From Gemmatimonadales bacterium (GTDB lineage: Bacteria; Gemmatimonadota; Gemmatimonadetes; Gemmatimonadales; GWC2-71-9), in the NCBI GenBank assembly GCA_035602245.1, contig DATNMO010000022.1:5836-69835 (forward strand): 64,000 nucleotides of DNA. The letters run 5' to 3'. Position numbers and translations under genes: made by a program. Under the pieces are notes generated by a model, which saw only the letters and a program-made list of their open reading frames with translations, made no database searches and had not been told where the DNA came from. Shown here in pieces: positions 14,952-30,634 of the stretch (its first letter is position 1; the number at the start of each line of letters is the position of its first letter).

Positions 14952-14985
14952 CTGGTCGTTCCTCCGTTACAAGCTGCTACACCAA

Positions 14986-15059
14986 TGGGCGAAGAGGGAT
15001 TCGAACCCCCGACATCCTGCGTGTAAGGCAGGCGCTCTGAACCGCTGAGCTATTCGCCC
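14986..15059 (-). tRNA. tRNA-Val (anticodon TAC)
   Basis: Hand-folded: acceptor GGGCGAA/TTCGCCC, D arm GCTC-AGCGGTTCA-GAGC, anticodon arm CCTGC-CTTACAC-GCAGG, T arm GGGGG-TTCGAAT-CCCTC, discriminator A. No encoded CCA. Confidence 0.9.
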
Positions 15060-15083
15060 GTGCCATAGAGGAGAGCGAGGGTG

Positions 15084-15281: not shown

Positions 15282-16094
15282 CTATTCGTCAATCTCAAGC
15301 TCGTCAAGCAGTTGGCCGTCATCCAACGCGGCGCGCCGGGCCTGGTCGCGGCGCCTCCGGAACATCACCAGCGCGACCAGGATCGCACCGATGGCAAGCC
15401 AGAAGAACCCCATGGCGGCCGCCCAGGACAGCCAGCCGTACCGCGACGCCACGTCCCGCTGCCAGCGCTGCTCGAAGTCGCCTTCCGTCATGTGGTAGGT
15501 GGCGCGCAGCGCCGCGTCGAACGTCTCCGCCTGTGGCAGGTTCGCGAGCAGCGGCGCGAGACCGCGCGCTCCTCCCCACCGATGGAGCAGCAGCACGGCG
15601 GTAGCCGCGAGCGCATAGCCGGTCTCCGCGTCCCCGCGCGCGCCACGCAACGCGCGATCCACGTCGTCGAGATTCATGCGCACGCCGCGGGCCAGCTGCC
15701 AGTTGAGCCGCAGCGCGTCGAGCCGATCCCACTCCTCCGCGGCGACGGCGGCATACCCCTCCTCGAACCAGAGCGGCACCTGACGTCCGACGTGCCAACG
15801 CAACGCCAGATGCGCGAGCTCGTGTCGTAAAGCGACGGCCAGACGGTCGGACGGCCCGACGGCCAACAGTACGACGACTCCGGCGTCCGGAAAGGCGGCG
15901 CCCTCGCTCCACAGCGGCAGCCGGCCGCGCGTGAGCGAGTCGTAGCGCTGGCGTGTGGATGCGAGGATCAGGCGAATCGGGTGATCGGGCAACGCGCCGA
16001 TGCCGGGGAAGCCGGTCGCGTGGTCCACGATCTCTGCGAACGAGGCGGCGATCGCTTCTTGACCGGGCCACGCCACGGCAGTTACACGGCCCAC
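15282..16094 (-). CDS. Putative zinc metallopeptidase (HExxH) with C-terminal TM anchor
   Basis: 270 aa. LRHELAHLALRWH (HExxH) followed by WFEEGYA. C-terminal helix WLSWAAAMGFFWLAIGAILVALVMF. The N-terminus is uncertain: the reading frame stays open upstream through a signal-peptide-like RLALIALLLQGPTVVQ with no canonical start. Confidence 0.7.
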   Translation of the reverse strand: MGRVTAVAWPGQEAIAASFAEIVDHATGFPGIGALPDHPIRLILASTRQRYDSLTRGRLPLWSEGAAFPDAGVVVLLAVGPSDRLAVALRHELAHLALRWHVGRQVPLWFEEGYAAVAAEEWDRLDALRLNWQLARGVRMNLDDVDRALRGARGDAETGYALAATAVLLLHRWGGARGLAPLLANLPQAETFDAALRATYHMTEGDFEQRWQRDVASRYGWLSWAAAMGFFWLAIGAILVALVMFRRRRDQARRAALDDGQLLDELEIDE

Positions 16095-16135
16095 CTGTAC
16101 GACCGTCGGGCCCTGCAGCAGCAGGGCGATGAGCG

Positions 16136-16999
16136 CTAGTCTCGCGGCGGCTCCTCGCCCTTAGCGACCAGCTCGAGCATCTCCTGACACTTCTTGCCCC
16201 AGGGATTGAATTTGTTGGCCTTGAATCCTTCTTCCCACGTGGTTTTGGCCTTCGCCTGGTCGCCGGCGAACCAGTGTGCGCGGCCCAGCTCGTAGTAGGC
16301 CTCGATCAGGTTGGGCCCGAGCTTGATGGTTTTCTGGAAGAAGGTCTGCGCATCCTCGTACATCTCGCGCTGCAGGTAGACGAGCCCGAGATAGAAATGG
16401 GCGTAGAGCGAGGCTTTCTTGTCGTTGGCGAGCCGGATGGCCTTGGACAGATGCTCGATCGCCTCGCCGAAGATCCGCTTCTTCAGGCAGATGTAGCCGA
16501 CGTTGATGCGCGCCAGCGAGTTCGCGGGCTCCTTCATCAAGACTTTTTGGAAGGTCCCGAGGGCGTCGTCGTAATCCTCGTGCAGCATTTGCGCCCAGCC
16601 GAGCAGCGATTCCGCCTGGGTCTCGCCGGGCGAGAGCTGCAGCGCTCGCTGCAGCGACGAGATCGCGCCGGCGTGGTCGCCGAGCGAGATCAGGCTCCAG
16701 CCCTTCTCGATGAAGGTCGAGGCGCCGATGTGATCGGCATGGACGACGGGGCGTTGGCCGGTGAACTCGGGGGCGGCCGCCTGCTTGGTGTCGGCGGTGA
16801 TCTGCTTGTAGCGATCCACGAGCTGGCGGATTTCATCCTTGAGCTGCGTCAGCTCGCCGAGCATGCCGTCCACTTTCTTGAAGTAGGCGATGATCTCGCG
16901 TTTGGCGGCTTCCCGCTCGGCTGTGCCCGGCGCCCCGTCGAGCTGACGCGCGATGGCATCGTATTCCCTTCGCAGGACCATGATCGGCGACTCGGTCAT
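16136..16999 (-). CDS. Coiled-coil + TPR protein, last gene of the Che/Mgl operon
   Basis: 287 aa. N-terminal coiled-coil (LGELTQLKDEIRQLVDRYKQI), then about 5 TPR units (AISSLQRALQLSPGETQA..., AQTFFQKTIKLGPNLIEAYYELG). The ATG overlaps the cheW stop (ATGA). Confidence 0.8.
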   Translation of the reverse strand: MTESPIMVLRREYDAIARQLDGAPGTAEREAAKREIIAYFKKVDGMLGELTQLKDEIRQLVDRYKQITADTKQAAAPEFTGQRPVVHADHIGASTFIEKGWSLISLGDHAGAISSLQRALQLSPGETQAESLLGWAQMLHEDYDDALGTFQKVLMKEPANSLARINVGYICLKKRIFGEAIEHLSKAIRLANDKKASLYAHFYLGLVYLQREMYEDAQTFFQKTIKLGPNLIEAYYELGRAHWFAGDQAKAKTTWEEGFKANKFNPWGKKCQEMLELVAKGEEPPRD

Positions 17000-17460
17000 G
17001 TCGCTCCTTGCAGCGCCAGCTTTTCCTTGGACGTCAGCAGTTTGTTGGTGTTGAGCACGATGATCGTACGCCCGTTCTTGACGACGAGCCCGGTGATGTA
17101 CTCGGCCGCGAGTCCCTTGACGATGCCGGGCGGCGGCGTCACCTCCTGCGCGGGGACCTGCATCACTTCCGTGACTGCATCCACGACGATGCCGATTTTG
17201 CCGCCTTCGAATTCGAGGATCATGGTGCGCGTATCGTCGCGCAGCGGCGCCGCCGCGCCGAGGCGCTTGCGCAGATCCACCAACGGCACGGCGCCGCCTT
17301 GATACCGGAGAATGCCCTCGAGATACTCCGGCGCCTTCGGGAGCGGCGCCGGCGCCTCGTATCGCAAGATGCGCTCCACTTGAAAGATGTTGAAGCCGAA
17401 GTCCTGGCCGCCCACCTTGAAGGTGACCAATTGAACGTCGTCGCCGGCGGTGGTCGTCAC
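16996..17460 (-). CDS. cheW: Chemotaxis coupling protein CheW
   Basis: CheW-domain sequence VQLVTFKVGGQDFGFNIFQVERILRYE...LEGILRYQGGAVPLVDLRKRLG. Start chosen at GTG 17460-17458 (GTGA overlap with the upstream cheW-like stop). The ORF-track start at 17538 adds 26 Arg/Gly-rich residues. Confidence 0.85.
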   Translation of the reverse strand: MTTTAGDDVQLVTFKVGGQDFGFNIFQVERILRYEAPAPLPKAPEYLEGILRYQGGAVPLVDLRKRLGAAAPLRDDTRTMILEFEGGKIGIVVDAVTEVMQVPAQEVTPPPGIVKGLAAEYITGLVVKNGRTIIVLNTNKLLTSKEKLALQGAT

Positions 17461-17864
17461 GCGAGCCGGTCCCCCAGCGCGTCCAGGTCGAGGATTGGCA
17501 CGAGTGCGCCGCCGTGCTCCGCCACGCCCGCCGCCCACGGCAGCGTCTGGCCCCGCGGCACCGGCAGCGACGGCTCCCGCACTACCGCATCGGCGTCGTC
17601 CACCTCAAAGGCGACCTGCCGCCCCCCTCCCAGTTCGACCAGGACGACGGTGCCGCCAGCCTCCGCGGGGGCCGGGCGGCCGGTGAGAAACGCCCCCAGA
17701 TGGATCAGGGGCACGAGGCGCCCGCGCAGCGGCGTGAGCCCGCGGACCGCCGGCATCGAACGAGGGACATCCAGCACTTCCTGCGCGTCCCCCACCTCGA
17801 GCACCTTGGCGACGGGCAGACCGTACGACTTGCCCTCCGCGCGCACCAGCAGATAGCCCTTCAT
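17457..17864 (-). CDS. CheW-like domain protein (short, divergent)
   Basis: 135 aa: [21 protein letters not shown]...[21 protein letters not shown] matches the CheW-fold pattern. The ATG overlaps the cheB stop (ATGA). Confidence 0.8.
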
Positions 17865-18982
17865 CGGCGCGGCTCTCTTCCGGTCCTGCGGCGCGCCAAC
17901 TCGGCGCCGACGCGGTCGGCGATCTGGCCGAGTGGCAATACCGCGTCCACGCCGCCCGCCTGCACCGCCGCCACCGGCATTCCCGGAATCACCGCCGACT
18001 CGCGGTCCTGCGCGAGCCCGGTGCCGCCCGCGTCGTGCATGGCGCGCAGCCCGTCGGCGCCATCGCGCCCCATCCCCGTGAGCACGACGCCCACGCCGCG
18101 TGGGCCGAACACTTCGGCGATGGAGCGAAACAGCGGATCGGCCGCGGGACGCACGCCCCAGATGGGCGCGGACTGGTCGAGCGCGATGATGGGGCCGTCG
18201 GGAGCGGAGCGCACCCGCATATGATAATCGCCCGGGGCCACGTATGCCGTGTCGGCCACGACGGGCGCGCCGTCGTCGGCCTCCACCACGCGCAGCTGGC
18301 TCATCGAGTCGAGGCGCTCGGCGAGGCTGCGGGTGAATTTGGGCGGCATGTGCTGGACGATCAGGACGGCGGCGCCACGTCCCGTGGGCAGGCGGGGCAC
18401 GACATCGGTGAGCGCGCGCGGCCCGCCCGTGGATGCGGCAATCCCGACCGCCAGCACGGCGCGGCCGCGCAACGCCAGCTCGGGCGGATGGACCACGGGC
18501 GCGGGCGGCCGCGCCAGGACCTTCACGTGCGAGAGGTCGGCCGCGAGGGCGCGCCGCACCGCGGTGATGAGCTGGGGCGCGAGCGCCGCAAGCGCCGCCC
18601 GGGGGGAAGAGGAGCCTGCAATATCTGGTGGCGGCTTGGCGACGATCTCGACCGCGCCGAGCTCGAGGGCGCGGATCGCGGTGGCAGTGCCGGGGCCCGC
18701 GTGGGCGCTGACCACGACGATGGGGCGCGGCGATTCGGACATGATGTACCCGATGGCGCCCAGGCCGTCGAGCTCTGGCATCTCGAGGTCGAGCGTCACG
18801 ACGTCGGGGTTGTACTGGTGAATCTTGCGGATGGCGTCCACCCCATCGCGGGCGGTGGCCACGACGCGGAACTCCCCGGTATCCGCGTCCCCACCCCCCA
18901 GCACGTCCACCAGCACGCGCCGCATCAGTGCGCTGTCGTCGGCGACGAGTACCGTGGGCCGGCGATCAGATGACGTGCTCAT
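17861..18982 (-). CDS. cheB: Chemotaxis response regulator protein-glutamate methylesterase CheB
   Basis: REC domain ([13 protein letters not shown]...[13 protein letters not shown]) plus methylesterase motifs [28 protein letters not shown]. Start taken at ATG 18982 ([13 protein letters not shown]), overlapping the cheD end by 17 nt. Confidence 0.9.
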
Positions 18983-19448
18983 CGGCTCCCACCGAGCGGA
19001 TCTCGACCCGGCCGTCCTGCACGTGAAAGCGCACGGAGCGGCCGCGCTCACCGCCCACCGCCTCGCGCAGGATGGGGATTTCGGCGGCGCGCAGGGCGTT
19101 GCGCGCCGCCACGACGTTGCGCTCGCCCATCTGAATCGTGCCGGGCGTCATCAGCTGGCTGAACATGCTGGCGCCCCCCGCGAGCTTGGCGACGAGGCGG
19201 CGCGGATCGGCGCCCAGTGCCTTGAGGCGCTCGACGAGCAGCGGCACCGCGGATTCGGGAAACTTCGCGGGGTTGCTCGCGTCATGCGCGAGGCTCTTGG
19301 ACGGCAGCAGGACGTGCGCCATCGCGCCGGACTTGCTGGTGGGGTCGTGCAGCATGATGGCGACGCAGGAGCCGAGGCCCAGCGTGACCAGTACCCCATC
19401 GCCGCGCTCGGCGGCCCATTCGGCGACCTTGACGATGACTTCCTTCAC
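18966..19448 (-). CDS. cheD: Chemoreceptor glutamine deamidase CheD
   Basis: C-terminal 160 aa of the 396-aa ORF: [18 protein letters not shown] (catalytic Cys), AHVLLP, GGASMF. GTG 19448-19446 overlaps the cheR stop (GTGA). The remaining upstream ORF is Arg/Pro-rich and overlaps cheR. Confidence 0.88.
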
Positions 19449-20260
19449 GGCGCAGTTGGTCTCGTATAGATCCGCTCCCGCGGGTCTACGAGGGTGAGAC
19501 GCTCGCGTGCCGGTCCGAACAGGGTCTCGACTTTCCCGAGCAGGAGCACACCGCCCGGCGCGAGCGCGTCCACGAACACCTGGAACAGCCGCTCCTGGGC
19601 CTGGCGCTCGAAATAGATCACGACGTTGCGGCACACGATCAGGTCGTACGGCGGACGCGGCGGCGGCTCCCGCATCAGGTCGTGGGCGAGGACGTGGACG
19701 AGGGCGCGGACCCCGGGCGCCGGCTGCCCGCCCGAGAAATACCGGCGCTTCAAGTCCGCCGGCATTTCGCTGAATGCGCCGTCGGGGTATTGGGCCTGGC
19801 GGGTGCGCTCGAGGCTCAGGCGGTCCACGTCGGTCGCGTCCACGAACGCGTGCTCGAGGGAATCTGTGCCCGCGGTCTGGGCGATGAGCATGGCGATCGT
19901 GTACGGCTCCTCGCCCGAGGCGCAGCCTGCGGACCAAACGCGGAGCCGCCCGCGCTGGGCGCGCCACAACGCCGCGAGATGCGGCCCCAGCGCGTTCCAC
20001 GTCTCGGCGTTGCGGTAGAACTTGGTGACGTTGATGGTGAGCGCGTCGAGCAGCTCTTGGTACTCGTGCGCGTCCTGATCCAGCAGCCGACTGTAGTCGT
20101 CGTAGGTGTGCACGCCGCGGGCGCGCATGCGCACCGCGATGCGGCGTTTCAAACACTTGTCCTTGTACGACTCGCAGCTCACTCCCCGCGTCGCCGAGAT
20201 CTTTTGCGTCAGCGCCCGGAACGCGCGCTCGTCCTGCGGTCCGCCTCCTGCCGAACTCAC
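19445..20260 (-). CDS. cheR: Chemotaxis protein methyltransferase CheR
   Basis: 271 aa. N-terminal helical domain (YKDKCLKRRIAVRMRARG, TINVTKFYRN) and SAM domain (RVWSAGCASGEEPYTIAM, DLIVCRNVVIYF). The GTG start overlaps the upstream stop (GTGA). Confidence 0.9.
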   Translation of the reverse strand: MSSAGGGPQDERAFRALTQKISATRGVSCESYKDKCLKRRIAVRMRARGVHTYDDYSRLLDQDAHEYQELLDALTINVTKFYRNAETWNALGPHLAALWRAQRGRLRVWSAGCASGEEPYTIAMLIAQTAGTDSLEHAFVDATDVDRLSLERTRQAQYPDGAFSEMPADLKRRYFSGGQPAPGVRALVHVLAHDLMREPPPRPPYDLIVCRNVVIYFERQAQERLFQVFVDALAPGGVLLLGKVETLFGPARERLTLVDPRERIYTRPTAP

Positions 20261-21873
20261 GACAGCGTGCTCAAGGTGTCCAGATTGGCTTTCACGAGTT
20301 CGTGCTTGGGGTTCAGCTCGAGCGCCCGGCGCCAGAGCTCGCTCGCCTGCTCACGGGCGTTTCGCTTGTAGGCGATGTTGCCGAGCTTGAAGAAGACGTC
20401 GTCGCCCAAGTCGGGCGCCAGCTCGACGGCGCGCTGGTAGAGATCCCATGCCTCGTCGTAGCGCGAGCCGCGGTAGGCCAGGTCGCCCAGGTTCTTGGAT
20501 AGCTGGGGCAGTGACGGCTCGTCCTGGAGCGCCGCACGCGCCAGCTCCTCGGCCGCCGGCAGGTCGCCGGCGAGCTCGCGGAGCACTGCGAGGTTGTTGC
20601 GGAGCACGGCGTTCTGGGGATGCGCCTCTACAGCCTGCGCGGCCACCTGCTCGGCCATCTCGAAGTCCCCCGCCGCCGCGGCGGTGAGCACGCGCGCCCA
20701 GTACCAGAGAGGCGGAACGTTCTCGGCGAACAACTCCTTGGCGCGGTCGAGCCGGCCCGCCGCGCTGGCGTGATCCCCCAGCTTCAGCGCGACCACTCCC
20801 CACCCCACGTACACGCGCGGATCGGTGCGCGCGCGCGTCGCCGCTTCGGCGTATGCCGCCTCCGCATCCTCGAGACGCCCCAGCTGCTCGAAGGCGAGTG
20901 CGAGGTTGTGGAGCACGGCGGGCCGGGAACCGCCCTTTTCGGCGGCGAGCCGCAGCGCCTCCATCGCCTCGCGCCAGCGCGCTTGCTTCAGCGCCACCAG
21001 CCCGATGAAGAAGTGCGCGTTGGCGTCGGTCGAGCGCAGCTCGGCCACGCGGCGGAACTCGCGCGCCGCTTCGTCCAGCATGCCCGTCTTGTAGAAGGCG
21101 ACGCCGAGATTACGGTGCTCCTCGACGCGCGCGTCCGTCATCTTCAGGTCTTCGGCGCTGGCGGTGCGGCCGGCGCGGTGCAGGAACCCCGCCGTCACGA
21201 GGCCGTACAGCGCCTTACCGACTTCGAACTCGCCGAGCCCCGAGTCTTCGATGGTCTGATTCACGTCGCGCGAGCCGTCGAGCAGCGGCAGCAGCCGCTC
21301 CTGCATTTCCGTCAATTTCGCATCGCTGATGGCGAGCCGGTCGCGGTCCACGACGAAGATCAGGTCGAACGAAGGGATCTTCTTCTCGATCAGGCTCCAC
21401 TCGTCCACCCGCCGGGCGCCCTCGAGCAGCAGCGATTCGGGGTTGATGGAGACCAGGAAGTCCTGCTGTTCGGGGCGGACGTCGGCCTCGAAGTTGAAGG
21501 TCCCCTGCGTCCACGTGAACAGGTAGTAGACCGACTCCTCGATCTGAATGCGCATGTAGCGCTCCAGCTCCTGCTGCGAGATCACGTTTTGGCCGACGAG
21601 AATCTCGCCCAGCTTTTTGTCGCGCTCCTTGGCCTGGCGGTGGATGGCGGCGTCGAGCTGTTCCTGGCTGATCTTCGCGTGCTTGACGAGGATGTCGCCG
21701 AGCCGGTCGCGGCGGTTGACGATCGACGCGTAGCAGATCCGGCCCTTGTCGAAGTAGATGTATCCGAAGTTCGAGCGGTCGGCGATCGACAGGCAGCCCG
21801 TTTTCTGCCCCAGCGCGAGCAGCTGCAGCACGTCGGGGAGCGACGCCTCTTTGAGCGAGCCCTTGATGGCCAT
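20257..21873 (-). CDS. PATAN/DUF4388-domain protein with GspE-N-like motif and C-terminal TPR array (paralog a)
   Basis: 538 aa. N-terminus [30 protein letters not shown]...GYIYFDKGRICYA is DUF4388/PATAN-like. LGDILVKHAKISQEQLDAAIHRQ...LGEILVGQNVISQQELERYM resembles the T2SS-E N-terminal (MshEN-type) repeat. About 7 TPR units follow. Confidence 0.8.
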   Translation of the reverse strand: MAIKGSLKEASLPDVLQLLALGQKTGCLSIADRSNFGYIYFDKGRICYASIVNRRDRLGDILVKHAKISQEQLDAAIHRQAKERDKKLGEILVGQNVISQQELERYMRIQIEESVYYLFTWTQGTFNFEADVRPEQQDFLVSINPESLLLEGARRVDEWSLIEKKIPSFDLIFVVDRDRLAISDAKLTEMQERLLPLLDGSRDVNQTIEDSGLGEFEVGKALYGLVTAGFLHRAGRTASAEDLKMTDARVEEHRNLGVAFYKTGMLDEAAREFRRVAELRSTDANAHFFIGLVALKQARWREAMEALRLAAEKGGSRPAVLHNLALAFEQLGRLEDAEAAYAEAATRARTDPRVYVGWGVVALKLGDHASAAGRLDRAKELFAENVPPLWYWARVLTAAAAGDFEMAEQVAAQAVEAHPQNAVLRNNLAVLRELAGDLPAAEELARAALQDEPSLPQLSKNLGDLAYRGSRYDEAWDLYQRAVELAPDLGDDVFFKLGNIAYKRNAREQASELWRRALELNPKHELVKANLDTLSTLS

Positions 21874-23831
21874 CAGCGCAACTCCTCGATGACGCGGTCA
21901 GCCGGCGAGGGCCAGTCCCACACCATTTTCTCGCGGCTGCGGACCCCGCCGGCGCTCGACACCACGATGCCGCTGGTGCGGAGACCAGTCGTGCGACGGG
22001 CGGCAGGCGCGCCTTCCAGCACCTCGCGCGCGAGTCCCGCCGACACCGGCGAATCCTGCGCCGCGGCCGCTTCCACCACGCGCTGCACCAGCCCAGTCAG
22101 GCTGCGCACCGAGTCGGTGGGACGGTCGGCGAGATAGTCGCGCAGCGCCGGGTCCGCCGGCACCCGGTGCTGCTTCAAGAGCGGCTCCAGCGCGGCGCGG
22201 CGCAGCTCCCGGTCCGGCTCGCCGATTTCCGCCACCAGCCCGCCCTCGAGGCGGGAGGCAATCCGCTCTTCCAATCCAGCCAGGGTGTTGGGGTGCGCGG
22301 GCGCGGTGAACACCAGCTGGCGGTCGGCATCCAGGAACTGGTTGAAGAGATTGAACAGCTCTTCCTGGGTCCGTTCCTTGCCGGCGAGCAGGTGAATGTC
22401 GTCGAGCAGCAGCGCCGTGGCGCGACGGTAGCGCGCGCGCCACCAGTTCACGCGGTTGCCGTCGATTGCGGCGATCAATTCGTCCACGAACGCCTGAGTC
22501 GAGAGGCAGGCGACCACAGCGCCTTTTTTCTTGGCCAGCTCGATGCCGATCGCGTTCAGGAGGTGGGTTTTCCCGAGACCGCTCCGTCCCACCAGCACGA
22601 GCGGATTGTACTTCTTGCCCGGCGCGGCGATCACGGCGCGGGCCGCCTTGACCGCGACTTCGTTCGACGGTCCCGACGCGTACCCGTCGAGCGGGAAGGC
22701 AGCGGACGGGGCCGGCGGCGGCGCCGCGCCCTCGCGGACCGTGGCCGCCGCCGCTTCTGCTTCCTCCAGGCGATCGGGATCGTGAAACACCTTGCCCCCC
22801 GCGGTCTGGGGATCGAGCGCCGTGACTTCCGCCTCGAGCGCCTTGAGACGCTCGACGTCCTGCACGTAGGCGGCGATCGCTTCGTCCACGGCCGCGGGCG
22901 TATCCTGATCGAGCAGCTTCTCGAGGCGGGCCGTGCGGTAGCCTTCACCTTCCCAGCGCAGCACGGCCTCCGCCACGCGCGCGCGCCACGCCTCCACGGC
23001 TTTGCCGACCGTGACGGTGACGTCGCTCAGGAACTGCGAGAATTCGTCGGCACCCGAAGCGCGGCCCGGCGCCTCGGTCGGCGCACTGCTCCCTGCTCCC
23101 TGCTCCCCGCTTCCGCTTACTCCCAGCACCTGACGCGCCGCTTCGGCATTGATCGGCGTGTCGTTCACCGCCTGGTAGGCGACGATCCGGTTGAGCGCGC
23201 CCATCAGCTCGCGCACGTTGGGAAACGCGATCTTGGCGACGGCCTCGAGCACGCCCGGCTGGAACGACGTACCGCGCTCTTCGGCCTTGCGCCGCAGGAT
23301 CGCCACGCGCGTCTCGTAGTCGGGCACGCCCATGTCCACGACCAGCCCGCCCGAGAAACGGGAGATCAGGCGCTCGTCCAGGTCCGCGATTTCGGCGGGC
23401 GGGCGGTCGCTTGCCAGCACGATCTGATGGCCGGCCTGCTGCAGCGCCTCGGTGAGCCGCAGCAGCTCCGCCTGCATCTCTTTGCGGTTCGTGAGAAACT
23501 GGACGTCGTCCACGAGCAGCGCGTCCACGTTCTGGAACCGGCGCCGGAACACGTCCCCCTGCCCCGCCGCGATCGCGGCGTGGAACGCCTCCACGTACTC
23601 GTCCAGCGTCAGGTATTCGATGTTGAGCTTGGGGGCGAGCGTCTTGGCGGCGTGCCCGATGGCCATCAGGAGGTGCGTCTTGCCCAGGCCGGAGCCGCTA
23701 TAGATGAACAGCGGGTTGTACGCCGACCCGGGATTCTCCGCGACGGTACTGCCCGCCGTCACCGCGAGCCGGTTTGCCGCGCCCACGACGAACGTATCGA
23801 AGCTGAAGCGCGGATTCAGGGTGCTGGTCAT
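21873..23831 (-). CDS. Tandem DnaA-like AAA+ ATPase (two DnaA domain-III modules, no domain I/II and no domain IV)
   Basis: 652 aa. Module 1 (aa 1-235): [19 protein letters not shown], Walker A GSGLGKTH, Walker [49 protein letters not shown]. Module 2 (aa ~378-605): [72 protein letters not shown]. No HTH or DnaA-signature segment is recognisable. ATGA-coupled to mglA. Confidence 0.85.
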
Positions 23832-24427
23832 GCTGGGCTCCCCGCCGCGAGCCGCTTCAGCACCAGCTCGGAGATGCTCTTCAGCGTCTCGAATACGCCG
23901 GTGCCATGCAGCGCGTCGGCCGCAAAGCTCGGCACCCCGCGGAAGTTCAAGGCGTCGTCGAGCTCGGGCTGCGTGAGGATGAGCTCGCGCGGCAGGTCCT
24001 GCTTGTTGTACTGCATCACGAGCGGCATGGCGCGGACATCCACCCCGTGCTCGAGCAGATTGCTCTGCAGGTTCTGGAGGCTCTCCAGGTTTTCGTCGAG
24101 CTGGCGGGCCTGGCTGTCGCCGACGAACACGACGCCGTCCGACCCTTGCAGCACCAGGCGCCGGGTGGCGTTGTAGTAAACCTGGCCCGGTACGGTGTAG
24201 AGCTGGAAGCGGGTCGTGAATCCCGAGATCTGGCCGAGGTCGATCGGGAGGAAGTCGAAGAACAGCGTGCGGTCGGTCTGGGTGGCAAGCGACACCATGC
24301 GGCCCCGGCGCGTCTCGGGTACCCGCCCGTACACGTAATGCAGGTTCGTCGTCTTGCCGGACCGACCGGGTCCGTAATAGACGATCTTGCAGGTGATTTC
24401 GCGGGTCGTGAAGTTCACCAGGGACAC
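23828..24427 (-). CDS. mglA: MglA-type Ras-like small GTPase
   Basis: 199 aa, collinear with Myxococcus MglA as I remember it: [21 protein letters not shown] (P-loop), [11 protein letters not shown] (switch I), [10 protein letters not shown] (switch II PGQ), QYNKQDL (NKxD). GTG start 3 nt after the mglB-like stop. Confidence 0.9.
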
Positions 24428-24430
24428 CGG

Positions 24431-24901
24431 CTATCTCCCGAACAGCGTGTTCAGACTGTCAGTCAGCTCGCGCTCGAAGTCCGCCGCCAACACCTGCTTG
24501 GGGACCGCACCCTTGGGGCTCGCTGCCTTCAGGTCCGCCGCAAGTTGCTCATAGAATAACTGCACCAGGCCGATCGATGAAATATCGAGGTCGTAAACCG
24601 CTAGCACCGCGAGCGTGCCGCGCTCGGTCACGAAGGTCGCCAGAAAGATGCCGTGCCGGTGTCCCTGGTGATTCAAGGCCGCGAAGGGCGGCTGGCGGAG
24701 CTGGCGCGCCAGCTCCGCCGTCGTGGCGACGATCGCCGCGCCGAGCGCGGCCGCCGACATCACATCCACCGCGCGCGAGAACCCCGATTGGGCGAGCACT
24801 TGGCCCGCCGGCGTCAGCACCAACACCAGACGCACCGATGCCTCTTTGACGAAGTCGGTGAGCGGCTGCAGCGTCCAGCTCTCGACCGCACGCGTGCTCA
24901 C
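24431..24901 (-). CDS. MglB-like Roadblock/LC7-domain protein (putative GAP partner of MglA)
   Basis: C-terminal 156 aa of a 350-aa ORF: LTDFVKEASVRLVLVLTPAGQVLAQSGF...GIFLATFVTERGTLAVLAVYDLD is a Roadblock fold pattern with a C-terminal extension. Sits immediately upstream of mglA as in mglBA operons. GTG 24901 overlaps the upstream stop (GTGA). Confidence 0.75.
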   Translation of the reverse strand: MSTRAVESWTLQPLTDFVKEASVRLVLVLTPAGQVLAQSGFSRAVDVMSAAALGAAIVATTAELARQLRQPPFAALNHQGHRHGIFLATFVTERGTLAVLAVYDLDISSIGLVQLFYEQLAADLKAASPKGAVPKQVLAADFERELTDSLNTLFGR

Positions 24902-25242
24902 ACGACCATCTCCGCGGCGCGCAGCAGCTCGAGCCGCACGAGGCCGATGTTCACGTCGGGCTCGGCGACGGCCACGACGAGGATTCCTCCCGCGGAGGTC
25001 CCCGGCACGACCAGCAACGCGCCACGCTCTCCCTGGAGATGCCAGAACACGCTCACCCCGATGCCTGCCGCCTCCATCGCGCGGCGCAGCCGCCCCGCGA
25101 GGCTCGCGGCCAGCGCCGCCACCGCGCCGCCCTTGATGCCTTCCATCAGTTGTTCGGCGACGACGAGCCCGTCGTCGGCCGAGACGAGCATGGCGCCGCG
25201 CACGCCGCGCACGCGGGTGATGAGGTCCAGGGCGGCGCTCAC
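24898..25242 (-). CDS. Roadblock/LC7-domain protein
   Basis: 114 aa: LDLITRVRGVRGAMLVSADDGLVVAEQLMEG...ERGALLVVPGTSAGGILVVAVAEPDVNIGLVRLELLRAAE is canonical Robl_LC7 layout. The GTG start overlaps the upstream stop (GTGA). Confidence 0.75.
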   Translation of the reverse strand: MSAALDLITRVRGVRGAMLVSADDGLVVAEQLMEGIKGGAVAALAASLAGRLRRAMEAAGIGVSVFWHLQGERGALLVVPGTSAGGILVVAVAEPDVNIGLVRLELLRAAEMVV

Positions 25243-26093
25243 GTCTCGCGCTCCAGCCAGCGCCGCGCCATCGTCGTCGCGCGTTGCGCGAGAATGGCGA
25301 GCCGCCCCAGGGGAACGCCGCGGTCGCGGACAACGAGCAGTAACGCCTCCGGCGTGGGATGGGAGAGGTGGACGTTGCCGTGCTGTCCCTCCGCCGAGAG
25401 CCCGCTCCAGGCGCCGAGGCCCAGGAGCTTGGCGGTGCGCGCCGCCTCCTGCGATACGCCCGCGAGATACGCGGCGACGGCATCCGTTACGTCAGTACCA
25501 GACTTGTCCTTCAAGGCACCGCCAAGGACACGACCAGCGCCGTCGATAAGCAATAAGCCTTCGTTGGCGCCCTCGAGGCCCGCGAACACACGGGATTCGT
25601 CGAGCGACGCCGGCGATGGAGCGGCGGCGGTTGGGGCGGTCGGGGCGGTCGGCGTCGCGGGTGCCTCCGGCGGCGCGGCCGGAGACGGCGGCGCCGCTCC
25701 CCCGCGCACCATCGCGATCGCCTGCGCGATGCTGGGGTCGTCGGGCTCGATCCGCTGCGCCAGATCGAGGTGCGCCTCGGCTTGGGTGAGGTCACCGACC
25801 TTGAAGTATAGGAACGCGAGCCCCTTCAGGGCGCCGGTGTGGTTCGGCGCGATGCGCACCGTCATGTCCCACTCATCGAACGCCTTCTCATAGTCGTGCT
25901 TGTCCGTCAGGATGCGCGCGTACAAATCATGCGCGTCGGCGAGGTGCGGATGCCGCTCGAGGCCGTTCACCGCGACGCGCGCGGCGGCATCGAGCTGGCC
26001 CTTGCGCCGCAGCGCTTCGCCGAGCCGCAAGAACACGAGGCTGTGCGGATCCTGCGCCAGCTGGGCGGAGAGTGCGCGGACGTCGTCAGCCAT
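25239..26093 (-). CDS. TPR - Pro/Ala linker - Roadblock/LC7 fusion protein
   Basis: 284 aa from ATG 26093 (MADDVRALSAQLAQDP...). It has 3 TPR-like units, the linker APPSPAAPPEAPATPTAPTAPTAAAPSPA, and then GLLLIDGAGRVLGG...NVHLSHPTPEALLLVVRDRGVPLGRLAILAQRA (Roadblock pattern). The start overlaps the upstream stop by 8 nt. Confidence 0.65.
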   Translation of the reverse strand: MADDVRALSAQLAQDPHSLVFLRLGEALRRKGQLDAAARVAVNGLERHPHLADAHDLYARILTDKHDYEKAFDEWDMTVRIAPNHTGALKGLAFLYFKVGDLTQAEAHLDLAQRIEPDDPSIAQAIAMVRGGAAPPSPAAPPEAPATPTAPTAPTAAAPSPASLDESRVFAGLEGANEGLLLIDGAGRVLGGALKDKSGTDVTDAVAAYLAGVSQEAARTAKLLGLGAWSGLSAEGQHGNVHLSHPTPEALLLVVRDRGVPLGRLAILAQRATTMARRWLERET

Positions 26094-27270
26094 GGCTGCC
26101 CGCCCGCATAGCCAGGAACACCCGCGCCGCATCGCGCGCGCGCTGCACCTCCTCGATCTGCGTCAACTCGTCCGGGCTGCGGGGGGCGAGCCGCTCCCAC
26201 TGATCCCAGCTCTCGAGGGCCTCGCCGAACCGGCCGATCGCCACCAGGGCGAACCCGAGGTGCCGGTGCGCCGCGGCGAGCAGCGGATCGAGCCGCAGCG
26301 CGCGCCGCAGCTCCTCGACGCCGGGGGCGCCGCGGCCCTGCGCCAGATGGATGCGGCCGAGCAACAGGTGCACGGTCGCGTCGTGCGGCTGCGTGTTGGC
26401 CGCCTGCTCGGCGGCCGCGCGCGCCCCGTCGAAGTCTTTCGCCTGCAGCGCCTGTTCGGCTTTCGCGACCAGCTCCGCGAGATCGGCCAGCGCGCTTCCC
26501 CCTCCTCCTGCTCCGCCCGCCCCCCCGCGGCCACGCTTGGCCGTGCCCGGATCCACCAGCACGATGACACCGGCGCTCTCCAACCCGAACAGCGTCTTGG
26601 CGACCTCGAAGTCCGAACGACCGAGCTCGGTGGCGAGGGCGCGCACGGCGCGCTGCCCGTCGATGAGCGCCAACACTTCCCACTCGGGCGGCAGCAGGTC
26701 GAGCTCACCGCCCGGACCCTCGGGCGGCGGCGCCAGCGACGGTACAACCCCCACATGTGGAATGCGGTTCTCGATCCGTGCCCATTCGTCGATGCGGCGC
26801 GCGCCTTCCATTAAGAGCGCCTCCACCGGAATCCGCACCTCGGCGCCGCTGGGCACCTCCCGCTCGGGTTCCTCGTTGAACGAGAAGTACCCCTCGTTCC
26901 AGCTCATCACCTCGAACACGACTTCCTCGATCTGGAAGCGCACCTGGCGCTCCACCTCGCGCTGCGTGATCACGCCAAGGGCCACCAGGATCTCGCCGAG
27001 GCGGCGCTTGTCGCCCTGGCGCTGCTGCATGTCGCGGGCACGCTCGAGATCGGCTTCCGTGATCTTGCCGGTGCGCAGCAGCAGGCCCCCGAGGGGATGC
27101 GGATTGCTGCGGATCTCCGCGAACACGATGACGCCATTGTCGAAATAGATCGTGCCCTGGTTGTGCCGCAGCTCCGAGGTCACGCGCAGCGCGCCCGTCT
27201 TGCGGCTCAAGTCGAGCAGCTGGAAGACGTCGTGGATGCCGAGCTCGCGGAGCGGCCCTTCAATCGCCAT
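26086..27270 (-). CDS. PATAN/DUF4388-domain protein with GspE-N-like motif and TPR tail (paralog b)
   Basis: 394 aa. MAIEGPLRELGIHDVFQLLDLSRKTGALRVTS...GTIYFDNGVIVFA (DUF4388), LGGLLLRTGKITEADLERARDMQ...LGEILVALGVITQREVERQV, then a second DUF4388-like segment (EWEVLALIDGQRAVRALA...) and 3 TPR units. Same architecture as 20257-21873. Confidence 0.8.
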   Translation of the reverse strand: MAIEGPLRELGIHDVFQLLDLSRKTGALRVTSELRHNQGTIYFDNGVIVFAEIRSNPHPLGGLLLRTGKITEADLERARDMQQRQGDKRRLGEILVALGVITQREVERQVRFQIEEVVFEVMSWNEGYFSFNEEPEREVPSGAEVRIPVEALLMEGARRIDEWARIENRIPHVGVVPSLAPPPEGPGGELDLLPPEWEVLALIDGQRAVRALATELGRSDFEVAKTLFGLESAGVIVLVDPGTAKRGRGGAGGAGGGGSALADLAELVAKAEQALQAKDFDGARAAAEQAANTQPHDATVHLLLGRIHLAQGRGAPGVEELRRALRLDPLLAAAHRHLGFALVAIGRFGEALESWDQWERLAPRSPDELTQIEEVQRARDAARVFLAMRAGSHG

Positions 27271-27283
27271 TGGGCGCCATCCC

Positions 27284-30013
27284 TCAGGCCGCGTCCGACG
27301 TGGAAAAGATGTGCTGCAGGTCGAGCGCCGTGCGCGCGTGCATGCGCGCGCGCTGGGCGTACGGCCCGCCGGGATCGATGCGCGTCACCCGTTCCCAAGC
27401 TTCGACCGCCTCGCCGTAGCTCTGCACACGGGCGAGCGTGGCGCCGAGGTAGAACAGCGCCCCGGTGTGCTCGGGATCGAACTTGAGGGCGCGGCGGAAT
27501 GCCTCGAGCGCCTCGGCGTTGCGTTTATCGTCGAGCAGCGCGCGCCCCAGCAGCAGCAGCGCGTCGAGGTCGTAGGGGTCCTGCTCCAGCATCTCGGCCA
27601 GCCGCACGACGGCGTCGCGGAGCCGGCCCGAGCGGCGCAGCAAGTCCGACAGGGCGAGCGCCGCTTCGTGGAACGTAGGCAGGGCCTCGAGCGCCTGCTC
27701 GTAGGCGCGCTGGGCCGGTGCCCACTCCTCGTCCTGCTCGTGCAGGCGTCCGAGGTCCAGCCACACCTGGACGAATCCGTGATCGAGGTCGAGCGCGGCT
27801 TTATACGCCTGCCGCGCCCCTTGTCGATCGCCGACCTTGAGCGCGATGTCGCCCTGGAGCTTGTGCAGATCGGGCCGGGCCGGCGCGCGCGTTTGCGCCT
27901 GCCGCAACGCGGTGAGCGCGCCCGCCGCGTCCCCGACGGCGGCGCGCGCTTTGGCGGCGGCCAGGAGCACCTCGACATCCTCGGGCGCGCGCGCCACCAA
28001 TTCCTCGACGAGCGGCAGCGCTTCCGCGGCCCGTTGGACCGCGAGCAGGCTCTTCACCTCGCCCAGCGCGGCGGCGGCGTTGGCCGCGTCGAGCGTCCGC
28101 GCCTCGCGATAGCGCTCCAGCGCCTCGCCGTGGAGGCCACGCTGCGCATAGATGTCGCCGAGCAGGGTGGCCGCCTGGCCGCGGTCCGCGCCGCGCTGCA
28201 CGGCGCGCATCGCTTCCGCCACCGCGAGGTCCATCATCCCCTTGCTCACGTAGTCGCGTGCCAGCGCGAGCGCATCGTCCTTCGATTTCTGAGCGGCGCC
28301 CTGCGCCGCCGCGCCCTGGGCGGTGCCGGACGATGCGGGCGCGAGCTCCTGGAAAATGTTGTCGAGCAGCCGTTGGTCGAAGGCGAACTCGGTGCCCAGG
28401 TTCTCGGCGGTCACGTCCGCGGAGATCTCGGGGACGATCCCGATCGCCACGGTTTCGTACTGCAGGTCGATCGCCAGCGCGAACTTCTGCGAGACGTAGT
28501 AGGGGTCGAGCTCGAGCGCGCGCTTGGTCGCCCGCAGCGCGCCGTCGAAATCGCCGAGGTTCGAGAGCGTGAAGCTCAAGTTGTAGTGGGCACCCGCATT
28601 CTGGGGATCCGCCTCGACCGCGCGCACGAATGCGTTGCGGGCGTCCGGAAACCGCTTCAGCTCGACGAGCACGAGGCCCACGCCGTTCCAGGCGGGAGCC
28701 GACGTCGGATGGTCGGCGAGCACCTGGCGGTAGGCCTCGAGGGCCAGCTGGAAGCGGCGCAGGTGCGTCAAGAGCAGCGCGAGGTTGAGCCGCGCGCCCA
28801 CGAACCCGGAGGAGAGCTGCAGCGCGCGCCGGAATGCCTCAATCGCGTCCTCGGTGTCGCTCTGGTGGGCGAGCACGACCCCGACGTTGTTCCACGCCAG
28901 GGCGTAGCGCGGGTCCACCTCCGCCGCCTGGCGGTAGGACGCGAGCGCGTCGGCGGTGCGGCCGGCCTGATGCAGGACCACGCCACGCTCGTTCCACAGT
29001 TTGGGAGAGTCCGGCACGTCGTGGATCAGCGACTCGTACAGGTCCAGCGCGTCCGCGAAGTCGCGCTTCAGCAGGTGGACCTCCGCCATGGCCTGGCGCA
29101 CGAGGCGGCGGTCTTCGCCCCGCTCGATCGCGAGCCTGTATTCGCGCAGCGCCTCCGCGTAATAGCCCTTCTGGCGGAACGCGAGGCCCAAGTTGTAATG
29201 CGCCAGCTCGCTTCCCTCGGCGACTTCCGGCGCCGGCGCATCGCGCACCCGGTCCTCGGCTGACTGGCGCTCCGCGCGGTAGCGCTCGAGCGACAGGTTG
29301 GTCTGCGCGCGGGCGAGCGGCGGGTTGAGCTGGATGGCCCGCTTCGACGCCGCGCGCGCGTCCTGATGACGGCCCATGTCCCCCAGCACGAACGCCATCA
29401 GGTAGTGCGCGTTGGCGTTGTCGGGGTTCAATGCCACCGCCCGCTCGAGCTCTGCCAGGGCCGGCTCGTTCAGCCCGCGGTTGTAGTAGACCTCGCCCAA
29501 ATAGAAGTGCACGACGCTGGACTCGGGATCCAACTCGACGGCGCGCAGCAGCCAGTCCGTGGCGATCTCCAGGCGGCCCCGGCTCTTCTCGGCGAGCCCG
29601 AGCTGGATCAGGGCCGCCACGTCCTTGGGCTTGTGGGCGAGCAGCTCCTCGAACTCCGCGACCGCTTCGTCGAAAGCGCCGAGGATCGCGTAGGTGCGGC
29701 CCAGCTCCCAGCGCGGCTCGCGCTCGTCGGGCGCCTGCCGGAGCCGCTCCTGCAGCTCGGCGACACGGCGGTCGTAGTAGCCGGTGTTGTGGTAGGAAAT
29801 CTCGAGGTTGCGCTGCGCGACCTGCATCTTGGGGTCGAGCTCGAGCGCGCGCGTGAACTGCTCGATGGCCTCGGGGACGAGGCCCTTCTGGTAGTAGAGG
29901 ACCCCGAGATTGTTATGCGCGCCCGCATCCGACGGATCGATCCGGCGGGCGAAGGATCGGAGAACGGCGAGGTCGCGTTCGGAAACGGGCGGCGTCGCAG
30001 CTGGCGCCGTCAC
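27284..30013 (-). CDS. Large TPR-repeat scaffold protein (909 aa)
   Basis: Nearly the entire length reads as consecutive 34-aa TPR units (NLGVLYYQKGLVPEAIEQFTRALELDPK..., repeated more than 20 times). No signal peptide, TM helix or catalytic motif was seen. GTG start 3 nt after the cheC stop. Confidence 0.85.
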   Translation of the reverse strand: MTAPAATPPVSERDLAVLRSFARRIDPSDAGAHNNLGVLYYQKGLVPEAIEQFTRALELDPKMQVAQRNLEISYHNTGYYDRRVAELQERLRQAPDEREPRWELGRTYAILGAFDEAVAEFEELLAHKPKDVAALIQLGLAEKSRGRLEIATDWLLRAVELDPESSVVHFYLGEVYYNRGLNEPALAELERAVALNPDNANAHYLMAFVLGDMGRHQDARAASKRAIQLNPPLARAQTNLSLERYRAERQSAEDRVRDAPAPEVAEGSELAHYNLGLAFRQKGYYAEALREYRLAIERGEDRRLVRQAMAEVHLLKRDFADALDLYESLIHDVPDSPKLWNERGVVLHQAGRTADALASYRQAAEVDPRYALAWNNVGVVLAHQSDTEDAIEAFRRALQLSSGFVGARLNLALLLTHLRRFQLALEAYRQVLADHPTSAPAWNGVGLVLVELKRFPDARNAFVRAVEADPQNAGAHYNLSFTLSNLGDFDGALRATKRALELDPYYVSQKFALAIDLQYETVAIGIVPEISADVTAENLGTEFAFDQRLLDNIFQELAPASSGTAQGAAAQGAAQKSKDDALALARDYVSKGMMDLAVAEAMRAVQRGADRGQAATLLGDIYAQRGLHGEALERYREARTLDAANAAAALGEVKSLLAVQRAAEALPLVEELVARAPEDVEVLLAAAKARAAVGDAAGALTALRQAQTRAPARPDLHKLQGDIALKVGDRQGARQAYKAALDLDHGFVQVWLDLGRLHEQDEEWAPAQRAYEQALEALPTFHEAALALSDLLRRSGRLRDAVVRLAEMLEQDPYDLDALLLLGRALLDDKRNAEALEAFRRALKFDPEHTGALFYLGATLARVQSYGEAVEAWERVTRIDPGGPYAQRARMHARTALDLQHIFSTSDAA

Positions 30014-30016
30014 GGA

Positions 30017-30634
30017 TCAGGTCAGGCGGATGGCGTCGAAGATGGCCTTGAGGGACGCCAAGTCGGGCAAGAGCAGGAAGTGGCCGCGCAGCCCGTCTTG
30101 GGCATCGATGTTGAACTCCGTCTCGACGCAAAACACGAAGTCCCGGTCGTGCCCGAAGTTCAGGTAGGTCGTCGTGAGGACGGCGGCCGAGACATCCACC
30201 ACCAGGCTCGGCACGGACGGCAACAGCAGCATCCCCATGAACTCCGACAGCGCATTCATGTACGCGCCCGAGAGGATGTTACCGGCTTCCTTGAGGCAGG
30301 ACTGCTCGATGGTCTCGAACGCGCTGGTCGTCCCCAGGGGGCGGCGCAGCAGCATGTCGCACAGCCGCCGCGCCACCGGCTCTGGGAAGAGGAGCAGCGT
30401 ACGCCCCGTGAGGTCCCCCAGCATGTGCATCAGCACGGCAGCGACGACCGCCTGCGGGTCGCCGAGGAGCGAGGGCACCTCCTCGAGCCGCGCGATATTG
30501 ATCTCCGGCACGGAGATCATGATCCGCCGGTTCGTCATCTGCGACAGCGCGGTGGCGGCGTGGCCGGCGCCGATGTTGGCGACCTCCCGCAGGGCGTCGA
30601 GCTGCAGCGCCTTCAGATCGCGGACGTCCTCCAT
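30017..30634 (-). CDS. cheC: CheY-P phosphatase CheC
   Basis: 205 aa with both CheC-type ExxNxxxG sites: LREVANIGAGHAATAL and LKEAGNILSGAYMNAL. Confidence 0.85.
   Translation of the reverse strand: MEDVRDLKALQLDALREVANIGAGHAATALSQMTNRRIMISVPEINIARLEEVPSLLGDPQAVVAAVLMHMLGDLTGRTLLLFPEPVARRLCDMLLRRPLGTTSAFETIEQSCLKEAGNILSGAYMNALSEFMGMLLLPSVPSLVVDVSAAVLTTTYLNFGHDRDFVFCVETEFNIDAQDGLRGHFLLLPDLASLKAIFDAIRLT

Follow-up and report, generated by a model that had tools for sequence, protein, structure and literature searches.

A two-module DnaA-type ATPase beside mglA

The stretch of DNA analyzed here, a 64-kb window from a Gemmatimonadales bacterium whose positions serve as coordinates throughout, carries on its minus strand an operon of chemosensory and cell polarity genes. 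These encode, in order, CheW, CheY, CheA, CheC, a 909-residue protein made up entirely of tetratricopeptide repeats or TPRs (TPR909), a PATAN-TPR protein, a fusion of TPRs and a Roadblock domain, a small Roadblock-type protein, an MglB-like protein, the small GTPase MglA, a 652-residue ATPase of the AAA+ superfamily, a protein with two PATAN domains and TPRs (2xPATAN-TPR), CheR, CheD, CheB, two CheW proteins, and one more TPR protein. The AAA+ protein is the theme of this report. DnaA domain III is the textbook AAA+ module for opening replication origins, and its well-known offshoots (Hda, HdaB, DnaC/IstB) all act, to our knowledge, in replication or transposition. Here, two such modules occur in one chain encoded next to mglA, and sequence comparisons indicate that this chain is a conserved, non-initiator DnaA-family protein with two ATP sites. 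The first-pass annotation of this DNA had described a DnaA-type AAA+ protein without a DNA-binding domain in a polarity/chemosensory operon, a description that homology and conserved synteny now sustain.

The gene upstream of the AAA+ gene encodes a true MglA, which matches that of Myxococcus xanthus (5YMX) over its full length and contains the TVPGQ motif, and the gene downstream encodes two PATAN (DUF4388) domains and TPRs, as detected with Pfam. Overlapping codons had been read at both junctions, and both overlaps are real: the AAA+ start codon shares 4 nt with the mglA stop codon (ATGA), and the AAA+ stop codon overlaps the start of the 2xPATAN-TPR gene (TGATG). A single frame holds a G+C content at third codon positions (GC3) of 0.83-0.94 over the entire AAA+ open reading frame (ORF). 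No earlier start codon is available between the in-frame stop upstream and the start of this ORF, which leaves no room for a hidden N-terminal domain.

The anatomy of the protein is based on an alignment of 30 diverse family members, a census of 77 de-replicated members, and an AlphaFold2 model of the whole chain (mean predicted local distance difference test, pLDDT, 85.8; predicted template modeling score, pTM, 0.47). The two full DnaA domain III modules reported from the first reading are borne out by Pfam, where Bac_DnaA (PF00308) matches in two stretches (E 2.9e-101, 337 bits), by NCBIfam TIGR00362, and by matches to the Bacillus subtilis DnaA structure 8BV3. TIGR00362 aligns residues 2-236 to positions 101-335 of its 437, equivalent to domain III only, and just four residues precede the first module. 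The claimed absence of domains I, II, and IV likewise agrees with the profile searches: neither DnaA_N (PF11638) nor Bac_DnaA_C (PF08299) matched the whole protein in Pfam at E <= 0.01, and this pattern of two Bac_DnaA hits without the flanking families is the one that had been predicted. The motifs quoted earlier, among them RLISRF, SVRSLTGLV, and a Walker A and a Walker B motif in each module, are all present in the translation as written, as is the C-terminal end.

The N-terminal module (N-module) aligns without gaps over 233 residues to domain III of B. subtilis DnaA (8BV3; E 2.5e-61), and Foldseek superposes a module on that structure with a TM-score of 0.95 and a root-mean-square deviation (rmsd) of 1.4 Å, at 46% identity in the structural alignment. 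The C-terminal module (C-module), 36% identical to the N-module (E 8e-42), matches DnaA 8BV3 with E 3.4e-41 versus 1.7e-5 for Escherichia coli Hda (5X06), scores by which it is DnaA-like rather than Hda-like. A neighbor-joining tree of DnaA domain III modules groups N-modules with N-modules and C-modules with C-modules in the main clade, although it has no support values and long branches and is unresolved at depth.

Between the modules lies a segment of about 142 residues, which had been taken for a plain Ala/Glu-rich joining segment. Its composition was read correctly (21% Ala, 11% Glu), but residues 262-368 make up a helical domain that is conserved in, and confined to, the family, so that the presumed linker is for the most part a real domain. 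The consensus of this middle domain is DEFxxFLSEV...WRxRV..ILRWxxEGxRTxRLExLL...FRDPD, with F267, G297, and L303 invariant and W293, T300, D351, and P352 at least 90% conserved. Modeled alone with AlphaFold2 it reaches a pLDDT of 89.3 and a pTM of 0.74; comparison of the model with folds in the PDB returned no significant neighbor (best E 5.9), and a Pfam search with the middle domain and the tail returned no family, Bac_DnaA_C remaining unmatched even at E <= 10. The idea that it might be a cryptic DnaA domain IV or I was discarded on hhalign probabilities of 0.09% and 0.11%, respectively. The middle domain is present in every member of the family and absent from the other DnaA domain III architectures that we found. 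Two variable linkers, predicted to be disordered, follow the N-module and the C-module and span 7-88 and 9-59 residues, respectively, across the family. The tail of about 45 residues noted after the second module does exist, but comprises two parts, the second of these linkers and a conserved 20-residue motif that closes the chain. The consensus of the latter is EK..W.WP....R..EE, and the chain ends two residues past EE in nearly all members. Its conservation (0.59) equals that of the N-module, with E634 kept in 68, K635 in 67, W640 in 73, P641 in 65, R646 in 63, E649 in 64, and E650 in 63 of the 77 members.

Both modules retain the residues of a DnaA-type ATP site: Walker A K51, Walker B D108/D109, the SDR sensor I, box VII R154/R158, and sensor II R207 in the N-module, and Walker A K421, Walker B D477/D478, box VII R523/R527, and sensor II R576 in the C-module, whose sensor I is degenerate in the window protein, with APA replacing SDR. 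Across the 77 members, the Walker A lysine is kept in 77 N-modules and 69 C-modules, the two Walker B aspartates in 77 and 75 N-modules and in 71 and 65 C-modules, the sensor I aspartate in 60 and 42, the sensor II arginine in 71 and 58, and the arginine finger in 59 and 69, respectively. DnaA oligomerizes in an ATP-dependent manner via its box VII arginine. The composite site made up of the C-module arginine finger and the N-module ATP pocket is intact in 67/77 members and the reciprocal one in 50/77. At the positions that correspond to single-stranded DNA (ssDNA) contacts in DnaA, the N-module has substitutions (H84, E118).

Conservation of the family and of its operon

More than 120 full-length homologs at 84-93% identity were retrieved from independent metagenome assemblies, all the named ones from Gemmatimonadales, and an exhaustive search of 1.84 billion representative sequences yielded dozens of clusters, formed at 50% identity, that match the window protein over its entire length (1-652), with lengths of 640-697 residues and identities down to 31-36%; all named members of these clusters, the most divergent included, are from Gemmatimonadota. 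Altogether, full-length homologs of 600-730 residues from independent assemblies exceed 300. A scan for the middle domain, with a 10-sequence subset of the alignment as query and one genome per species, matched at least 352 species-level genomes, of which the best 80 are all Gemmatimonadota save one metagenome-assembled genome (MAG) labeled Myxococcales with identical synteny. In that MAG (L070, DASWGQ010000203.1), the complete Gemmatimonadota-type cluster is 74-90% identical to the window proteins, and its label most likely reflects a binning error rather than horizontal transfer. The family is deep and vertically inherited in Gemmatimonadota. Databases list its members as "DnaA/Hda family protein" or "AAA family ATPase", and many of them wrongly as "chromosomal replication initiator protein DnaA". 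Canonical DnaAs of 448-460 residues, with domains I and IV, matched a family member as separate hits whose taxon was not identified. A literature search found no paper describing this architecture, which had been unfamiliar in the first pass too, or any DnaA-like partner of MglA; among the mglA neighbors noted in the main survey of small GTPases in prokaryotes there are PATAN proteins and no AAA+ protein.

Gene order around the AAA+ gene is highly conserved. Twelve genes (CheA-CheC-TPR909-PATAN_TPR-TPR_Robl-Robl-MglA-AAA+-PATAN2_TPR-CheR-CheD-CheB) are collinear in all 80 loci where the contig is long enough, and the order is identical in a Gemmatimonadaceae MAG, in a 287-kb contig, and in members only 35-41% identical. 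The 4-nt overlap between mglA and the AAA+ gene is retained in 78/79 loci, the AAA+ stop codon and the start of the PATAN gene are at most one nucleotide apart in 81/81, and no protein of the cluster is better conserved than MglA (87-96% identity). From these comparisons, most Gemmatimonadota appear to have an MglA/MglB-PATAN-TPR polarity module wired into a Che chemosensory operon. One lineage (L087, 3024-13563) has lost CheA, CheR, CheD, and CheB yet retains CheY, CheC, the long TPR protein, PATAN-TPR, the Roadblock proteins, MglA, the AAA+ protein, and 2xPATAN-TPR in the same chromosomal slot, which places the AAA+ protein in the Mgl/PATAN/TPR core rather than in the Che kinase/adaptation machinery. 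The tail motif is still there in this lineage without CheR and CheB, and on that ground a role of the tail in tethering CheR or CheB, comparable to that of the receptor pentapeptide NWETF, was rejected. In another locus, L088, CheB alone is missing.

Whether orthologs always sit beside mglA had been posed as a check; they do so in nearly all the loci examined but not in the deepest branch (P0170/P0302-type, about 34% identity), where no mglA adjoins the AAA+ gene and an ortholog of TPR909 or a PATAN gene is found instead. In two of these loci (L081, L084), a TPR protein of 817-867 residues is encoded directly upstream and is orthologous to TPR909 (E 6e-98 and 3e-77 over about 800 residues). 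Of the window neighbors, TPR909 alone has an ortholog that still adjoins the AAA+ gene in this branch, which makes the long TPR protein its oldest conserved partner. Neither module has been lost in any of the deep-branch members, and the middle domain is recognizable in all of them (E 1e-17 to 1e-26). The TPR-adjacent lineage also has the tail motif, which is replaced in a PATAN-adjacent paralog. Both kinds occur in one deep-branch MAG (GCA_003697105.1) with two AAA+ paralogs. The first (L081; coordinates of interest 3765-4667 and 12099-12701) is preceded by two bactofilin genes, gatC/gatA, and the long TPR gene, and after it comes a gene for a conserved 200-residue protein with a signal peptide and a C-terminal transmembrane helix; the second (P0304; L085, 3863-7497) follows a PATAN-only gene and one for a 241-residue helical protein without a Pfam family. 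Neither the 200-residue nor the 241-residue neighbor is a hidden MglA homolog, for no similarity was detected and the former has the look of a signal-peptide/transmembrane protein.

The features of the cluster, which extends from 16136 to 33415 and includes CheA, CheY, CheC, CheD, CheR, CheB, and three CheW, are collected in Table 1. CheR, CheB, and CheD require a chemoreceptor as substrate; a scan of ORFs from ileS to the dcw cluster turned up no gene for a methyl-accepting chemoreceptor, and neither flagellar genes nor replication genes nor dnaN occur in the 64-kb window. Both PATAN proteins match NF053729 ("cyclic di-GMP-binding domain, MshE-related"; E 3.5e-14 for 2xPATAN-TPR and 3.4e-11 for PATAN-TPR) at about residues 57-112, inside the PATAN region, and both also align with the N-terminal MshEN of P0207 (described below), similarities that suggest they may bind cyclic di-GMP (c-di-GMP). 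The 114-residue ORF upstream of the MglB-like gene fills the slot taken by a Robl_LC7 gene of 114-118 residues in L083, L086, L087, L088, and L089; a tblastn search of the window with the 115-residue Roadblock protein of L083 gave no match at E <= 1e-5, so that its identity as a Roadblock protein is assigned by position. The GTG start of the MglB-like gene overlaps the stop of this 114-residue gene (GTGA), and a mechanically listed 350-residue ORF (24431-25483, minus strand) proved over-extended, with a GC3 of 0.71 and Arg-rich nonsense in its N-terminal half; the real genes there are the MglB-like one and the 114-residue ORF, which uses a different frame. Similarly, in a 396-residue ORF (18966-20156), CheD is confined to the last 160 codons or so.

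Table 1. Genes of the chemosensory and polarity cluster, and segments of the AAA+ protein, in window positions
Feature	Position	Strand	Basis
CheW	about 32942-33415	minus	
CheY	32560-32940	minus	
CheA	30647-32731	minus	
CheC	30017-30646	minus	
TPR909, 909-aa all-TPR protein	27284-30013	minus	Pfam
PATAN (DUF4388) + TPR, with MshE-related c-di-GMP-binding motif	26086-27270	minus	Pfam, NCBIfam
TPR + Roadblock fusion	25239-26132	minus	Pfam
Small Roadblock-type protein, 114 aa	24898-25242	minus	assigned by position
Roadblock/LC7, MglB-like	24431-24901	minus	Pfam Robl_LC7; weak NCBIfam MglB match
mglA, 199 aa	23828-24427	minus	E 7e-73 to M. xanthus MglA
Tandem DnaA domain III AAA+ gene, 652 aa	21873-23831 (stop codon 21873-21875)	minus	ORF list, Pfam, NCBIfam, GC3
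N-module (DnaA domain III), aa 5-236	23124-23819	minus	8BV3 alignment, Foldseek, census
Linker 1, aa 237-261, variable, predicted disordered	23049-23123	minus	pLDDT <50 for 239-263; conservation 0.23
Middle domain, aa 262-368, conserved helical, family-specific	22728-23048	minus	alignment, AlphaFold2
Pro-rich connector, aa 369-378	22698-22727	minus	sequence and conservation profile
C-module (DnaA domain III), aa 379-608	22008-22697	minus	8BV3 match, census
Linker 2, aa 609-632, variable, predicted disordered	21936-22007	minus	pLDDT <50 for 610-634; conservation 0.26
C-terminal tail motif, aa 633-652	21876-21935	minus	census
2xPATAN + TPR, with MshE-related c-di-GMP motif	20257-21873	minus	Pfam, NCBIfam
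CheR	19445-20260	minus	
CheD	18966-~19450	minus	
CheB	17861-19051	minus	
CheW	17457-17864	minus	
CheW	16996-17538	minus	
TPR protein	16136-16999	minus	

Known systems and related DnaA-type architectures

Set beside DnaA itself, the window protein shares a complete domain III, in both modules, with Walker A and B motifs, box VII arginines, and the sensor II arginine, but it lacks domain I (helicase/regulator binding), domain II, and domain IV (DnaA-box binding), has domain III in duplicate, together with a helical domain and a C-terminal motif that are both new, and its gene lies in an mglA/PATAN/TPR/che operon rather than beside dnaN or an origin. At most, it would work in the manner of DnaA's AAA+ core. 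With Hda, HdaA, and HdaB it has in common its membership of the DnaA family without a DNA-binding domain, as reflected in the NCBI pipeline name "DnaA/Hda family protein". Hda, however, is a single module of about 230-250 residues with an N-terminal clamp-binding motif and acts in regulatory inactivation of DnaA (RIDA), whereas the window protein has two modules, scores 177.6 bits with the Hda model TIGR03420 (cutoff, 194.8), and shows on reading no clamp-binding motif (QL[SP]LPL-like) at its N-terminus or ahead of the C-module. p97, NSF, and ClpB also contain two AAA+ modules per polypeptide but belong to another AAA+ clade that forms closed stacked hexamers with pore loops, and the structural match to them is trivial (rmsd >20 Å).

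The functional setting to which the protein belongs is that of the M. xanthus polarity module, which has in common with the Gemmatimonadota one a true MglA, proteins of Roadblock/MglB type, an all-TPR protein of great length (SgmX in Myxococcus), PATAN proteins, and a Che system (Frz in Myxococcus). They differ in that the Gemmatimonadota components are encoded in one operon with an AAA+ protein translationally coupled to mglA; no AAA+ ATPase is known in the MglA/MglB module of Myxococcus.

DnaA domain III modules without domain IV recur elsewhere, where they accompany TPR arrays, domains of c-di-GMP type, and genes for type IV pili. Three proteins of 876-1,395 residues (P0245, P0266, P0268) have a long TPR array and one C-terminal DnaA domain III module; in one locus of this kind (L091, 4028-8188), the neighbors are ribF, hemA, and LysM genes. 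Two others (P0207, P0211) consist of MshEN, which is a c-di-GMP-binding domain, a DnaA domain III module, about 1,280 residues, and a second such module. In three Candidatus Fermentibacteria assemblies (L090, 2359-13973; L092, 5797-15198; L093, 5800-17268), a four-gene block of such proteins stands amid pilus genes in the order pilD, MshEN with two DnaA domain III modules (~980 residues), MshEN (~430), MshEN with one module (~425), MshEN with two separated modules (~1,990), TonB_C, and pilB, followed in L090 by pilT, pilC, and pilS. The Fermentibacteria proteins are annotated just as "ATP-binding protein". Like the window protein, these Fermentibacteria and TPR-fused forms have domain III without domain IV, in some cases two modules per chain, and their best matches outside their own family are the Gemmatimonadota proteins. 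They differ in their N-terminal MshEN or TPR array and have no adjacent mglA and neither the middle domain nor the tail of the Gemmatimonadota family, which were not present in the Fermentibacteria MshEN proteins. As they are equally uncharacterized, they are parallels, not an explanation.

Proposed role and rival explanations

That the AAA+ protein is a non-replicative component of the MglA/MglB-PATAN-TPR module seems to us highly likely. It is probable, at a lesser degree of assurance, that it acts as an ATP-gated assembly switch or scaffold of this module, wired to the Che system. Through the overlapping start and stop codons, it would be made in fixed proportion with MglA and the PATAN-TPR protein. 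Its modules would pair head to tail when bound to ATP, as in DnaA, either within one chain or between chains, and the best-conserved composite site would be that in which the invariant N-module ATP pocket is completed by the C-module arginine finger. Assembly gated by ATP/ADP could then change the exposure of the middle domain and of the tethered C-terminal peptide to partner proteins, with MglA-GTP and the PATAN proteins bearing the c-di-GMP motif as inputs. The prime candidate partner would be the long TPR protein of about 900 residues, likened to SgmX as a very long all-TPR protein, whose repeats might receive the peptide in the way that TPRs dock an EEVD tail; specific docking of the tail into a TPR protein is a tentative proposal that we think somewhat less likely to be right than wrong. 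The output would presumably be the placement or activity of a polar machine, for example type IV pili, with no part as replication initiator. In M. xanthus, the 14-TPR protein SgmX is recruited by MglA-GTP, type IV pili being thereby switched on, and PATAN proteins co-occur with SgmX (PMC11580455), a precedent that makes such an output plausible for the present module.

Several points weigh against this proposal. The protein-protein contacts it invokes are inferred; the correlation of tail and TPR protein is based on two lineages; no pilus gene lies within the 64-kb window; and a Che cluster with CheC and CheD would suit a system of flagellar type as well. AlphaFold2 places the two modules without confident relative packing, as its pTM indicates, and among family members the N-module arginine finger and the C-module ATP site are lost independently of each other (Fisher p = 1.0). 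The internally dimeric switch of the first-pass annotation, a fixed intramolecular pseudo-dimer, is therefore no more than a possibility, toward which just the overall asymmetry between the two composite sites points. Moreover, the unusual closeness of the N-module to real DnaA could be the mark of an interaction with DnaA, and the C-module retains canonical ssDNA-contact residues, I453 (48/77) and K485-E-R487-T488 (R487 in 57/77), beyond the needs of a pure protein scaffold. The isoleucine of the initiator-specific motif (ISM) and the K-E-R-T-Q motif are established ssDNA contacts in the DnaA structures 3R8F and 8BTG from Aquifex aeolicus and B. subtilis.

These last features lead to the alternative of a coupler between polarity and the cell cycle, also raised in the first pass, in which the protein would cap or co-assemble with the DnaA filament, or bind ssDNA via its C-module, so that initiation follows the chemosensory or polarity state. 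The type species of Gemmatimonadota divides by budding. In addition to the gap-free match of the N-module to DnaA, the retained arginine fingers and ATP sites, and the ISM isoleucine and K-E-R-T-Q motif of the C-module, a coupler could appeal to the dcw cell-division cluster that adjoins the operon across the phylum, and to Hda and HdaB as precedents for DnaA-related regulators without a DNA-binding domain. The adjacency to dcw, however, may be mere inherited synteny, replication genes are absent from both the operon and the rest of the window, and the protein has neither a clamp-binding motif nor domain I. Furthermore, the ssDNA-contact residues of the N-module are replaced, the conserved neighbors are all GTPase, Roadblock, PATAN, TPR, or Che genes, and the related DnaA domain III architectures are found in pilus clusters, not at origins. 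No evidence for a link between polarity and the cell cycle was found, and we consider a coupler unlikely. Closer to the proposed assembly switch, the protein might instead be dedicated to the nucleotide cycle of MglA, as an ATP-dependent exchange factor, a modulator of its GTPase-activating protein (GAP), or a sequestering factor, a role that RomR, RomX, and RomY fill in Myxococcus, rather than scaffold a TPR protein. The near-universal overlap with mglA, the exceptional conservation of MglA, the two or three Roadblock proteins encoded alongside, and the lack of a RomR-like gene among those seen in the cluster would all fit, but both modules persist, with the middle domain, in deepest-branch members that have no adjacent mglA, as does the tail in one of the two deep paralogs, and there is no GTPase near the Fermentibacteria and TPR-fused relatives. 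A dedicated MglA regulator seems unlikely.

Two further alternatives carry far less weight. Having two AAA+ modules per chain, with p97, Rix7, and NVL listed by Foldseek, the protein might be envisaged as a ring-forming unfoldase or remodeler of the p97/ClpB type. The p97-type matches, though, have rmsd values of 20-27 Å and TM-scores of about 0.27 and reflect just the two AAA+ folds per chain, while the modules have the fold of the initiator clade, as the superposition on 8BV3 indicates, and an insert of about 140 residues with a disordered linker separates them. AAA+ proteins of the initiator clade form open spirals and have no substrate pore loops, and a ring unfoldase is very improbable. 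As for an artefact (a frameshift, an assembly fusion, or a decaying pseudogene) or a mobile or defense element (an IstB-like helper or a conflict system), for which only weak secondary matches to IstB_IS21 (59 bits) and to generic P-loop models could be adduced, the chance is negligible and the comparative data already refute it. Full-length homologs from independent assemblies and the uniform GC3 exclude the fusion of two genes that the first pass had flagged as a risk, the chromosomal gene order from ileS-lspA to the dcw cluster is preserved, PADLOC returns generic P-loop and TPR matches alone, and the IstB_IS21 score is dwarfed by that of Bac_DnaA. An IstB/DnaC helper ATPase had been considered separately and was set aside on the same two scores, together with the 91 bits obtained with NF038214 against a cutoff of 200 and the lack of a transposase nearby.

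A broader reading extends the assembly switch to the related architectures. DnaA domain III may have been exapted in the Fibrobacteres-Chlorobi-Bacteroidetes (FCB) group into a hitherto unrecognized class of ATP-driven, self-assembling motility and polarity switches, the tandem form being the missing landmark or regulator that positions MglA and the TPR/PATAN effectors in Gemmatimonadota, and the MshEN-fused forms acting at type IV pili under c-di-GMP control in Fermentibacteria; in a stronger variant, the retained DnaA-like surfaces would also contact the real initiator and couple polarity to replication. We consider this class-wide exaptation less likely than not. Were the assembly switch to prove correct, an ATP-gated assembly component would be added to an MglA paradigm so far made up of GTPase, GAP, guanine nucleotide exchange factor, and TPR/response-regulator effectors, and the protein, taken together with the Fermentibacteria relatives linked to pili, would establish DnaA-derived ATPases of a new functional class. 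In this family a DnaA module has been duplicated, freed of its DNA-targeting domains, and provided with a new domain and a docking-type tail, and translational coupling has kept it in a small-GTPase polarity operon throughout the history of a major phylum of soil bacteria. Two ATP sites, two arginine fingers, one tail, and one middle domain offer handles for experiment, and the finding corrects a widespread database misannotation as replication initiator.

The chromosomal setting of the operon is itself stable. It is flanked by ileS-lspA on one side and, on the other, by a peptidase gene, a TPR gene, and the dcw cluster (rsmH, ftsI, murE, murF, mraY, and others). Window positions 5852-38941 correspond to the same slot in L083, L087, L088, and L089, from ileS-lspA-rluD to peptidase_MA, TPR, and rsmH-ftsL-ftsI-mur. 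Within this flank, between the TPR gene (13140-14966) and the peptidase_MA gene (15282-16160), the window carries a tRNA gene on the minus strand at about 15000-15075 (Rfam RF00005, 45 bits, the match being clipped at the edge of the search range).

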